In this document: in pieces, positions 9,001 to 12,000 of the stretch | Position numbering within the stretch: position 1 is the first letter of the stretch | How the letters are laid out: each line of letters begins with the position of its first letter | Source of the DNA: Escherichia coli | Lineage (GTDB): Bacteria > Pseudomonadota > Gammaproteobacteria > Enterobacterales > Enterobacteriaceae | Reading direction: 5' to 3' (one strand) | Assembly (NCBI RefSeq): GCF_041886205.1 | Contig: NZ_CP169029.1 | DNA: 64,000 nucleotides | Program-made: the position numbers

Positions 9001-12000
9001 GGTTGCCACCATAGTCCCTGATGAACAGCGCATCAGCTTCTGGCCGCAGCATTTTGGCCTCATTCCACAGTGGGTGACCCTGGAGCCCCGTGTTTTCGGC
9101 TGGATGGACCGTCTGTGCGAAGACTACTGCGGGGGTATCTGGAATCTGTACACTCTGAACAACGGCGGGGCATTTATGGCCCCCGAACCGGATGACGATG
9201 ATGACGAAACATGGGTACTGTTCAATGCCATGAACGGCAACCGCGCTGAAATGAGCCCGGAAGCCGCCGGCATTGCTGCCTGTCTGATGACGTACAGTCA
9301 TCACGCCTGTCGTACGGAGTGTTATGCCATGACGGTCCACTATTACCGTCTGCGGGATTACGCCCTGCAGCATCCGGAATGCAGCGCCATTATGCGCATC
9401 ATCGACTGAATGGAGGCAGGGACAATGCAGCAGCTTTCCTTTCTGCCCGGAGAAATGACGCCCGGCGAGCGCAGTCTCATTCTGCGGGCTCTGAAAACCC
9501 TGGACCGCCATCTTCATGAACCTGGTGTGGCCTTCACCTCCACCCGTGCGGCACGGGAATGGCTGATTCTGAACATGGCGGGACTGGAGCGTGAAGAGTT
9601 CCGGGTGCTGTATCTGAACAACCAGAATCAGTTGATTGCCGGTGAAACCCTTTTCACCGGCACCATCAACCGCACGGAAGTCCATCCCCGGGAAGTGATT
9701 AAACGCGCCCTGTACCACAATGCCGCTGCCGTGGTGCTGGCGCACAATCACCCGTCCGGTGAAGTCACTCCCAGTAAGGCAGACCGGTTTATCACTGAGC
9801 GTCTGGTACAGGCACTGGCCCTGGTGGATATCCGGGTGCCGGACCATCTGATAGTCGGTGGCAACCAGGTTTTCTCCTTTGCCGAACATGGTCTGCTTTA
9901 ACTCGTCACAACCACATCACACCTGTTTTCACTTTTATCTTCTGTCTTCAGAGGTATCACATCATGAAAATCATCACCCGTGGCGAAGCCATGCGTATTC
10001 ATCAACAACATCCTGCATCCCGTCTTTTCCCGTTCTGTACCGGCAAATACCGCTGGCACGGCAGCACTGAAGCGTATACCGGTCGTGAAGTGCAGGATAT
10101 TCCCGGTGTGCTGGCCGTGTTTGCTGAACGTCGTAAGGACAGTTTTGGCCCGTATGTCCGGCTGATGAGCGTCACTCTGAACTGAGTCAGTAAGGGCATT
10201 CTGATGAGCAGAATTATCTCCACCACCGTGTATACACTGCATGAGCTATCCTCCACCGCACAGGAAAAAGCCCGCGACTGGTACCGTCAGCATCATGCTG
10301 ACAGCAACTGGTATGAAAACGTGTATGAGGACTTCAGGGAGGTCTGTGGCATTTTCGGAATTGACCTCCGCCAGCGCGTTTTCCGGCTCAGCAACGGCAG
10401 GTTTATGGAAGAGCCGTGCATCTGGTTCAGCGGATTCTGCAGCCAGGGGGACGGAGCCTGTTTTGAAGGACGCTGGCACTGGCAGTCAGCAACAGCCAGG
10501 GGAGTCCGGGTGTATGCCCCGCAGGACCGTGAGCTTCATCGTATCGCGGATGCCCTGCAGGCGGTGCAGAAGCGTAACTTCTGGCAACTGCAGGCTGAAA
10601 TCCACCACCGGGGACGTTACTGCCATCCGTACTGCATGGATATCACCGTCACCCGGAACAGTCCGACTGGTCAGGCTATGACAACCGATGCGGAAGCCGC
10701 AGTCAGCGAAGCCCTGCGCGACCTGGCCTTCTGGTTGTACCGTCAACTGGAAAACGAGTACGACTGGCTGACCTCAGACGCCGCTGTGGATGAGGCCCTG
10801 CTCATCAACGAATACACCTTTACCGAAGCCGGTCTGCACGCCGGCTGACCTGTCATCGTTAAACCATTCTTAACCGATTTTCTGTGAGGATTTTATCGTG
10901 TCAGACAAGCTCCATGAGACAAATTATCCCGACGACCATAACGACCGCATCTGGTGGGGACTCCCCTGCACCGTGACGCCCTGTTTCGGGGCACGTCTGG
11001 TGCAGGAGGGTAACCGGTTGCATTACCTTGCCAACCGTGCCGGTATCAGAGGCCGGTTCAGAGATGCGGATGCGTACCATCTGGACCAGGCCTTTCCGCT
11101 GCTGATGAAACAACTGGAAATCATGCTCACCAGCGGTGAACTGAATCCCCGACATCAGCATACCGTCACGCTGTATGCGAAAGGGCTGACCTGCGAAGCC
11201 GACACCCTCGGCTCCTGTGGTTACGTTTATCTGGCTGTTTATCCGACACCGGCACCCGCAACCACCTCATAACCCCGAAGCTCTCACCTTTAGCACTACC
11301 AGTTACAGAGAACTTAAGATGAAAACATTATCCGACACACATGTACGGGAGGTATCTCGCTGCCCGTCTCCCGTCACCATCTGGCAGACACTGCTCATCC
11401 GACTGCTGGACCAGCATTATGGCCTCACACTGAATGACACACCGTTTGCCGATGAACGTGTGATTGAGCAGCATATTGAGGCAGGCATTTCACTGTGTGA
11501 TGCGGTGAACTTTCTCGTGGAAAAATACGCGCTGGTGCGTACCGACCAGCCGGGATTCAGCGCAGGAACTTCGTCGCAGTTAATCAACAGCATTGATATT
11601 CTCCGGGCACGCCGGGCAACAGGTCTGATGACCCGCAGCAACTACAGAACGGTAAATAACATTACTCTGGGGAAGCATCCGGAGGCGAAACAATGAAACT
11701 TTCCCTGACACTGGAAGCAGACAGCGTTAACGTGCGGGCACTGAACATGGGGCGCATTGTCGTTGACATTGATGGTGTAAATCTCGCTGAACTGATTAAC
11801 GTGGTCTGCGATAACGGCTGCTCCCTTCGTGTTGTTGATGAATCTGACCGGGCCTCAACAGACTGCACGCCACCATTTGCCGCCCTTACCGGCATACGCT
11901 GCAGTACCGCTCATATCACAGAAAGGGACAACGCCTGGCTGTTCTCGCTGTCGCATCAGACAAATGACACCGGCGAATCAGAATGGATTCATTTTACCGG

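Follow-up and report, generated by a model that had tools for sequence, protein, structure and literature searches.

CbtA and CbeA of Escherichia coli K-12 form a characterized type IV toxin-antitoxin (TA) pair (PMC5371832, PMC5624674). One neighboring gene class in such modules also has an experimentally supported activity: yfjY of K-12 CP4-57 (now lfgB; locus L004, 4387-4869), a RadC/JAB paralog, was reported to encode a protease with MqsA, an unrelated antitoxin, as its substrate (PMC10846083). In plasmids, leading regions are rich in anti-defense genes, methyltransferases, single-stranded DNA-binding proteins (SSBs), TA genes, and uncharacterized families, and about 10% of those uncharacterized families have phage-associated annotations (PMC11541004). 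The stretch of DNA analyzed here (64,000 nucleotides of E. coli contig NZ_CP169029.1, referred to as the window) carries a CP4-like module with cbeA- and cbtA-like genes of its own. In this module a gene for a 214-amino-acid (aa) protein, labeled X, lies at 10204-10848 on the plus strand, between the yeeT-like gene and the cbeA-like gene. The initial annotation of the window considered X an extra gene that had been inserted there and might encode a metal-binding component or regulator of the module. Comparison with other genomes indicates instead that X is an ancestral part of the module that K-12 has lost, and that it belongs to a very large family of mobile-element proteins.

Gene X in E. 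coli CP4-like modules

In K-12 MG1655 CP4-44, yeeT is followed directly by cbeA across a spacer of 73 nt, in agreement with the order given in the initial annotation. That spacer (locus L003, 4040-4112; NC_000913.3, 2077039-2077111) corresponds to window positions 10186-10228 joined to about 10863-10897. The X ribosome-binding site and ATG are still there, as are the opening 25 nt of the gene (ATGAGCAGAATTATCGCCACTACCG), with its first 8 codons, and the K-12 sequence resumes about 15 nt beyond the X stop codon. The deletion spans about 634 nt, and the scar holds a 16-codon remnant open reading frame (ORF) (MSRIIATTGPFLADFL, followed by a stop). Because the K-12 spacer keeps these parts of X, the difference between the two loci is a deletion in K-12 and not an insertion in the window.

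A second, independent type of deletion was seen in E. coli Res13-Lact-PEB14-36 (L002, 3001-3113), at the CP4-44 site on the cobU side. In this type the first ∼530 nt of X are gone and the last 113 nt are left, unannotated, right after the yeeT stop codon. Among 5,426 complete E. coli genomes, full-length X was present in 1,942 (36%), the K-12-type junction in 2,821, and the second junction, with the last 113 nt, in 3,038; CP4-like modules occupy a median of 3 places per E. coli genome. Next to the X deletions, yeeT and cbeA are still annotated as intact. Two different scars beside yeeT and cbeA genes annotated as intact point to X as an ancestral component of the enterobacterial CP4-like module (DUF932, antirestriction, RadC, DUF987, X, CbeA, CbtA) that was not inserted. 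They further indicate two or more deletions of X in E. coli, one of them in the lineage leading to K-12 CP4-44. The other K-12 modules, CP4-57 and CP4-6, have spacers of 37 and 18 nt, respectively, with no remnant of X.

The G+C content of X (0.578) is like that of its neighbors (0.52 to 0.575), and X is therefore not a recent insertion. The initial annotation was thus correct that the gene is missing from K-12 CP4-44 and that it lies upstream of the TA pair in the same orientation, but it had the direction of change reversed, given that the K-12 scar keeps the start of X and that intact X persists in more than a third of the complete genomes. K-12 misleads as a reference for this module: a deletion scar is what separates its yeeT and cbeA genes. 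The ancestral operon included X, and work on CbtA and CbeA in K-12 alone never saw the full operon.

X is a genuine protein-coding gene under purifying selection, far beyond a chance ORF. It runs from an ATG at 10204 to a TGA ending at 10848, starting 18 nt past the stop codon of the DUF987/yeeT-like gene and ending 49 nt before the GTG of the cbeA-like gene. A Shine-Dalgarno-like AAGGG, read directly from the sequence, stands at 10192-10196 (plus strand), 7 nt before the ATG. The position and orientation initially assigned to X were exact, and both peptides quoted at the time (CIWFSGFCSQGDGACFEGRWHW and HHRGRYCHPYC) are found in its translation, which is 97% identical to RefSeq E. coli and UniRef entries. 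The ratio of nonsynonymous to synonymous divergence (dN/dS) between X and a 90%-identical E. coli paralog is about 0.33 (dN, 0.079; dS, 0.236). A comparison with a 96.5%-identical E. coli stretch (L001) has too few differences to inform, and one with a locus in which X is fused to CbeA is invalid, as an indel shifts the codon register. The good ribosome-binding site, this dN/dS ratio, thousands of homologs, and a confident AlphaFold2 model together indicate that X is real and constrained.

As a finding in the window X is ordinary: CP4-like islands carry it as a standard part that is already catalogued. In the 96.5%-identical stretch, RefSeq lists DUF932, antirestriction, JAB/RadC, and DUF987 genes, a "hypothetical protein" (645 nt), a YeeU-family antitoxin, a CbtA-family toxin, DUF5983, DUF957, and DUF4942, in that order, and E. 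coli Br_112_kylling (L011) has the same arrangement. X is thus a widely annotated member of such modules, but one to which no known function is attached.

The X family and its genomic company

X is an ordinary member of a very large, uncharacterized family of acidic proteins of ∼210 aa, whose genes travel on conjugative plasmids and integrative elements and in phages. A word-indexed search returned 2,723 homologs. HMMER, run against 1.84 billion representatives, returned 3,619 clusters (50% identity) at E values of ≤1e-3 and 412 at ≤1e-30; the protein database also holds many truncated or partial entries. E. coli X and the alphaproteobacterial copies are about 60% identical. By hmmscan, residues 2 to 210 of X matched positions 2 to 195 of the 201 positions of PHROG 5162 ("unknown function") with an E value of 6.9e-37.

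Residue conservation was taken from an alignment of 113 homologs that align end to end with X, at 37 to 64% identity to it. Members of the family are about 200 to 220 aa long, with a median isoelectric point of 4.75 and a median net charge of -16, and 26 positions are nearly invariant. Conserved in at least 90% of the 113 sequences are an N-terminal helix (E14-L15...A19...A23), the loop motif FSGFxSQGDGAxFxG (G77, F78, Q81, G82, D83, G84, A85, F87, and G89), and Y139-x-H141. R172, W177, Y179, L182, N202, F206, and G210 are further conserved positions. The N-terminal signature of the family reads E-L-S..A...A, and the protein encoded in the window carries all of the signature residues.

AlphaFold2, supplied with the same alignment, modeled X with a predicted local distance difference test (pLDDT) score of 96.7 and a predicted template modeling (pTM) score of 0.89. 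The predicted fold is alpha/beta, with two N-terminal helices, a six-strand meander, two helices, a hairpin, and a long C-terminal helix pair. A Foldseek search of AFDB50 with this model returned essentially the X family alone (template modeling scores of 0.9 to 0.98). X matched no Pfam family even at E values of ≤10, no NCBIfam family, and none of the families of PADLOC-DB v2 at E values of ≤1. Sequence searches of the PDB with phmmer and with a profile of the 113 sequences gave no meaningful match. The C-terminal extension of a 374-aa homolog (P0140) had no Pfam match.

RefSeq now names many copies of X simply "hypothetical protein." The family's database name is a generic label for RelB/StbD-type antitoxins, and the sole E. 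coli paper found to use it contains an enterotoxigenic E. coli proteomics table in which the name is attached to relB. The name appears to have been misapplied to X and propagated without evidence. X does not fit the RelB/StbD/Phd-type antitoxins: those proteins are about 80 to 100 aa long, and X has 214 aa and no Pfam RelB or PhdYeFM domain. Among the annotated genes beside X in enterobacterial loci, none is named as a RelE-, ParE-, or Doc-type toxin. One apparent eukaryotic member, AFDB entry A0A4P9WST2 of Blyttiomyces helicus (a 969-aa "DUF4326 domain-containing protein"), includes a full X domain with 60% identity to E. coli X. Contamination of the eukaryotic assembly with bacterial DNA, or a gene model merged in it, is the probable source.

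When one genome per species was scanned, at least 582 genomes had a relative, and neighbors were counted at the best 80 loci (58 to 63% identity), which comprise 79 loci of Alphaproteobacteria and one of Salmonella diarizonae. A gene for a 138-aa protein lies directly upstream of X, with an 8-nt overlap, in 74 of the 80 loci, and a gene for an S-adenosylmethionine (SAM)-methyltransferase/helicase of ∼1,450 aa lies directly downstream, also in 74. The other recurrent neighbors are a 711-aa ParB-like protein (59 loci), a toprim protein (56), DUF2493/YAcAr (45), ArdC (44), DUF2958 (31), RadC (12), and DUF932 (8). CbeA, CbtA, DUF987, YeeW, and DUF4942 were found in 1 of the 80, the Salmonella locus. 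The 138-aa partner (L006, 7592-8008, and 73 loci in L012 to L091) is highly conserved and acidic (MADYFTHFSCLLDVG...WGFQYANTCSRPR...FGGGAHV) and matched nothing in Pfam, NCBIfam, or PHROG. Homology of this partner to CbeA or DUF987 was rejected (hhalign probabilities of 0.1 and 0.4, respectively).

X homologs were present in 111 plasmid records, 41 of them typed as conjugative. The order in a MOBP/MPF_T conjugative plasmid is repC, ParB-like, SSB, DUF932, RadC, RadC, and DUF6878, then, after further genes, a 139-aa protein and X. On the 3' side of X are inserted MbcA/RES and AbiE TA cassettes, followed by toprim and DUF2493. The second plasmid examined has a similar arrangement. The order DUF932...RadC...X is thus a backbone common to alpha- and gammaproteobacterial elements, with varied TA cassettes directly after X.

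Phage genomes with an X homolog numbered 54, virulent and jumbo phages among them, and included Caulobacter jumbo phages, Pseudomonas phages Lana and PMBT3, Acinetobacter Saclayvirus, E. coli phage Av-05, and Klebsiella phage RaK2. The CcrColossus homolog, gp015, lies 8.3 kb from the end of the genome, and that of CcrBL9-like phages is inside the terminal repeats. X stood amid arrays of small hypothetical genes in all four phage records examined. At least 515 IMG/VR contigs carried a relative. At the best 80 of these viral loci no neighbor family occurred in more than 11, the median neighbor length was 105 aa, and distant metagenomic members gave the same picture, with no fixed neighbor. X therefore needs no fixed partner encoded beside it. 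One phage family of ∼210 aa (IPFSGFYxSxHD...SPREYNFxTDRI...SGFxSFYS...WDHNQ) lies within a few kilobases of X in 11 of the 80 viral loci, for example on IMG/VR contigs L125 (5712-6350), L126 (4873-5535), L145 (8808-9431), and L156 (5324-6001), and has no Pfam match. This family was considered as a relative of X and rejected, because the two have only an 8-residue FSGF motif in common, which is not significant.

Candidate roles of X

The proposed role starts from the entry of a mobile element into a new cell. X would be made early at that stage and would act as a stand-alone factor on a conserved host or DNA-level target, providing anti-defense or help with establishment. Once an island is resident and immobile, X would become dispensable and be deleted often, and the TA pair would stay. 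We infer this function from genomic context, and we give an even chance to X being a stand-alone early establishment or anti-defense factor of mobile elements. A broader proposal is put forward more tentatively as a whole: that X represents a structurally novel family of early establishment or anti-defense effectors, found across Proteobacteria in conjugative plasmids and integrative elements as well as in virulent phages, with X acting alone on a conserved host or DNA-level target and CbeA/CbtA being one of several TA cassettes that landed beside it.

Three lines of evidence suggest such a role. The first is the company that X keeps, which includes SSB, antirestriction proteins (ArdB/KlcA or ArdC), RadC, DUF932, ParB-like proteins, and the methyltransferase/helicase. 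The second is that virulent phages carry it by itself, in the midst of small genes of unknown function, which in Caulobacter phages means near the genome end. The third is that X is acidic and dispensable in resident cryptic islands. That copies from E. coli and from Alphaproteobacteria are ∼60% identical implies that the target itself would be conserved (DNA or single-stranded DNA, a nucleotide, or a core host protein) or that X would be an enzyme.

Several considerations weigh against an establishment or anti-defense role. The strong conservation of X (26 positions; 60% alpha-gamma identity) is unusual for arms-race inhibitors and would be just as fitting for an enzyme or for a protein that binds a universal target. 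The putative placement of X in a leading region derives from the neighboring genes only, and its frequent deletion could reflect simple neutrality. The modeled structure has no relative in the PDB that would hint at a mechanism, and PADLOC, Pfam, and NCBIfam offered no family match at the thresholds given above. Literature searches that covered the family name, DUF987, leading regions, and CbtA/CbeA found no publication on the X family. The close association of X with CbeA and CbtA in enterobacteria, described below, is a further point on this side.

The best of the other explanations, although a rather unlikely one, is that X is an enzyme or cofactor that acts on DNA or nucleotides together with the methyltransferase/helicase, ParB-like, and toprim proteins of the element, and that protects or processes incoming DNA in cis. 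Such a role would be broadly like that of the phage P1 Dar proteins, and not a direct inhibition of a host defense protein. It would account for the nearly invariant polar and Gly-rich motifs (FSGFxSQGDGAxFxG, Y139-x-H141, E14, R172, and N202) and for the very strong conservation of the family across distant hosts. It is also consistent with the position of X directly beside the 1,450-aa methyltransferase/helicase in 74 of the 80 genome loci and with the large DNA methylase near the X homolog of Pseudomonas phage Lana. However, the enterobacterial modules and most phage loci lack the methyltransferase/helicase.

The arrangement in enterobacteria raises the question of a role with CbeA and CbtA, in which X would either form a third component of the enterobacterial module or modulate it, perhaps as a co-antitoxin, adaptor, or sensor that tunes the action of CbtA on FtsZ/MreB. 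No more than one gene separates X from CbeA or from CbtA at any enterobacterial locus examined. The order is DUF987, X, CbeA, CbtA in E. coli and DUF987, CbeA, X, CbtA in Klebsiella and Salmonella, where the pair is split by the 645-nt gene (Klebsiella L098, 5610-6996; Salmonella L101, 5293-7081, and L073, 9260-11086). Salmonella has two tandem, divergent CbeA paralogs, 35% and 72% identical to CbeA of the window, and in both Salmonella loci the ATG of X overlaps the stop codon of the second cbeA.

In an island beside cadC/cadB/cadA in E. coli CP138416.1 (L096, 6001-7032; also L095 and L097), X is naturally fused in frame to CbeA, giving a protein of 343 aa, and the fusion is found in several E. 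coli assemblies. It arose by a change of TGA to TTA and deletion of 34 nt of the spacer, and cbtA is intact downstream; the protein database holds about fifteen near-identical variants of 342 to 343 aa. In addition, there is no strong terminator-like or promoter-like site between X and the pair.

The case for a TA role nevertheless meets several difficulties. K-12 lacks X, yet its CbtA/CbeA pair is a characterized one (PMC5371832, PMC5624674). In more than half of the E. coli genomes X-deleted modules stand beside DUF987 and YeeU/CbeA genes annotated as intact, and X occurs without CbeA/CbtA in 79 of the 80 genome loci and in the phage loci. Profile-profile comparison indicated no relation between X and CbeA (hhalign probability, 0.2), and X had no PF06154 match even at E values of ≤10. 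AlphaFold2 modeled the X part of the fusion confidently, with a linker predicted to be disordered (pLDDT, about 30) and a pTM of 0.62. A packed two-domain X-CbeA protein was thus rejected as a candidate, as no confident packing was predicted, although this is a weak test given the shallow alignment available for the CbeA part.

These comparisons suggest that the CbeA/CbtA pair does not include X as an obligate member, and a role of X as its third component is distinctly improbable. The initial idea that X belongs to the TA module, as a component or a regulator, is therefore at best weakly supported, with adjacency in enteric bacteria, the CbeA-X-CbtA order, and the fusion in its favor and the K-12 pair without X, the loci without CbeA/CbtA, and the phages with X alone against it. 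The initial annotation was right to allow that X might be unrelated to the pair.

The proposal that X is a Cys/His metal-binding protein or regulator, of the zinc or iron-sulfur type, came from its composition. X of the window has 6 Cys and 9 His, clustered at residues 72 to 92 and 134 to 144; H141 is nearly invariant (109 of 113 homologs), and C86 is the majority residue (72 of 113). However, C86 is replaced by Ser in 35 homologs, and H135 is kept in 63, C144 in 38, C72 in 31, C140 in 24, and C79 in 20. H134 is not among the three commonest residues at its position and is present in fewer than 20. Close enterobacterial copies read ...RGRYCHPYS..., ...RGRYYHEYS..., or ...RGRYYHAYT..., with S144 or T144 and Y140 replacements. 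No set of three or four Cys/His ligands is kept even among close relatives, which argues against a conserved metal center, and X matched no zinc-finger or other metal-binding Pfam family. The Cys/His clusters are lineage specific, and a conserved metal site in X is not supported. Of the eight clustered residues H141 is the only one that is nearly invariant, and a metal-binding role now seems hardly credible.

Equally implausible is that X is a functionless, decaying passenger ORF of a cryptic E. coli island: the two very common deletion alleles, the numerous truncated or partial database entries, and the pseudogenes nearby in cryptic CP4-like islands would fit decay, but the full-length frame is kept in 1,942 E. 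coli genomes, the dN/dS ratio is 0.33, and conservation of the family, whose fold is predicted with confidence, extends from phages to alphaproteobacteria.

An establishment or anti-defense role remains the preferred reading. The X family comprises thousands of clusters, with members in 582 or more species genomes and 515 or more viral contigs, and is highly conserved, structurally unmatched, unstudied, and apparently misnamed. Its setting is that of the early protective genes of plasmids and phages, and it is a reasonable candidate for functional screens of anti-defense or establishment genes.

The surrounding module and described systems

The genes around X in the window are all on the plus strand, and most were assigned from their ORFs and from the annotation of their equivalents. 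Upstream are a DUF932 gene (8051-8869; PF06067 is among the Pfam families of related loci, with PF03230 and PF04002), an antirestriction gene of the ArdB/KlcA type (8924-9409; PF03230-type), and a RadC/JAB gene (9410-9901; TIGR00608 match with an E value of 2.7e-43). The DUF987/yeeT-like gene (9964-10185; 73 aa), which directly precedes X, matches PHROG 14887 with an E value of 1e-37, and DUF987 is annotated at the equivalent position in L001 and L011.

Downstream of X is the cbeA/yeeU-like type IV antitoxin gene (10898-11272; 124 aa, GTG start), annotated in L001 and L011 as "type IV toxin-antitoxin system YeeU family antitoxin." It is followed by the cbtA-like toxin gene (11319-11696; 125 aa), of the CbtA family in L001. 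CbtA of the window is 63% identical to an ORF of the Salmonella locus L073, and the product at the same position in L101 is PF06755 (CbtA_toxin). Next come a DUF5983/yeeW-like gene (11693-12181), a small DUF957-like gene (roughly 12190-12395; ends approximate), and a DUF4942 gene (12492-13337). These genes have annotated equivalents in L001 and L011.

A terminator-like hairpin with a 13-bp stem and a T run (7982-8011, plus strand) lies just 5' of the DUF932 gene, and another (12435-12461, plus strand) lies 3' of the DUF957-like gene. Between them no strong terminator-like site and no promoter-like site was found on the plus strand; the sole weak hairpin has three G-C pairs and is inside cbtA at 11489. 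Because of the flanking terminators and the absence of strong internal sites, the genes from DUF932 through DUF957, X included, look like one predicted transcription unit, with the two hairpins as its probable left and right limits.

About 300 nt (13338-13645) separate the end of the CP4-like island from glnP (13646-14305). The core genes beside the island, glnP-glnQ-ybiO, are 100% identical to those of E. coli strains, which identifies the host as E. coli. Unlike in K-12, there is no glnH directly upstream of glnP in the window, and E. coli Br_112_kylling has the same layout. The island thus appears to be at or within the glnH side of the glnHPQ operon. Pseudogenes are present nearby in cryptic CP4-like islands (L001).

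Two groups of described proteins are close enough to X in setting to invite comparison. CbeA/YeeU antitoxins (PF06154) are adjacent to and co-oriented with X in enterobacterial modules and fused to it in one E. coli lineage, and both are small cytoplasmic proteins of mobile islands. They differ in that CbeA/YeeU has about 122 aa compared to the 214 aa of X, without sequence or profile similarity; in addition, X is widespread without CbeA/CbtA, and the fusion model has no confident contact between the two.

The second group consists of proteins made early or encoded in leading regions to protect the incoming element (ArdA, ArdB/KlcA, ArdC, PsiB, SSB, and orphan methyltransferases). X has no homology to any of these and is far more conserved than typical arms-race inhibitors. 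Membership in a known antirestriction family (ArdA, PF03230, PF08401) was rejected, as X has no Pfam match and the PF03230-type gene of the module is the one at 8924-9409. X nevertheless shares the genomic company of these early protective proteins and, like them, is acidic and common to plasmids or integrative and conjugative elements and phages, and it fits the uncharacterized families described in plasmid leading regions (PMC11541004).

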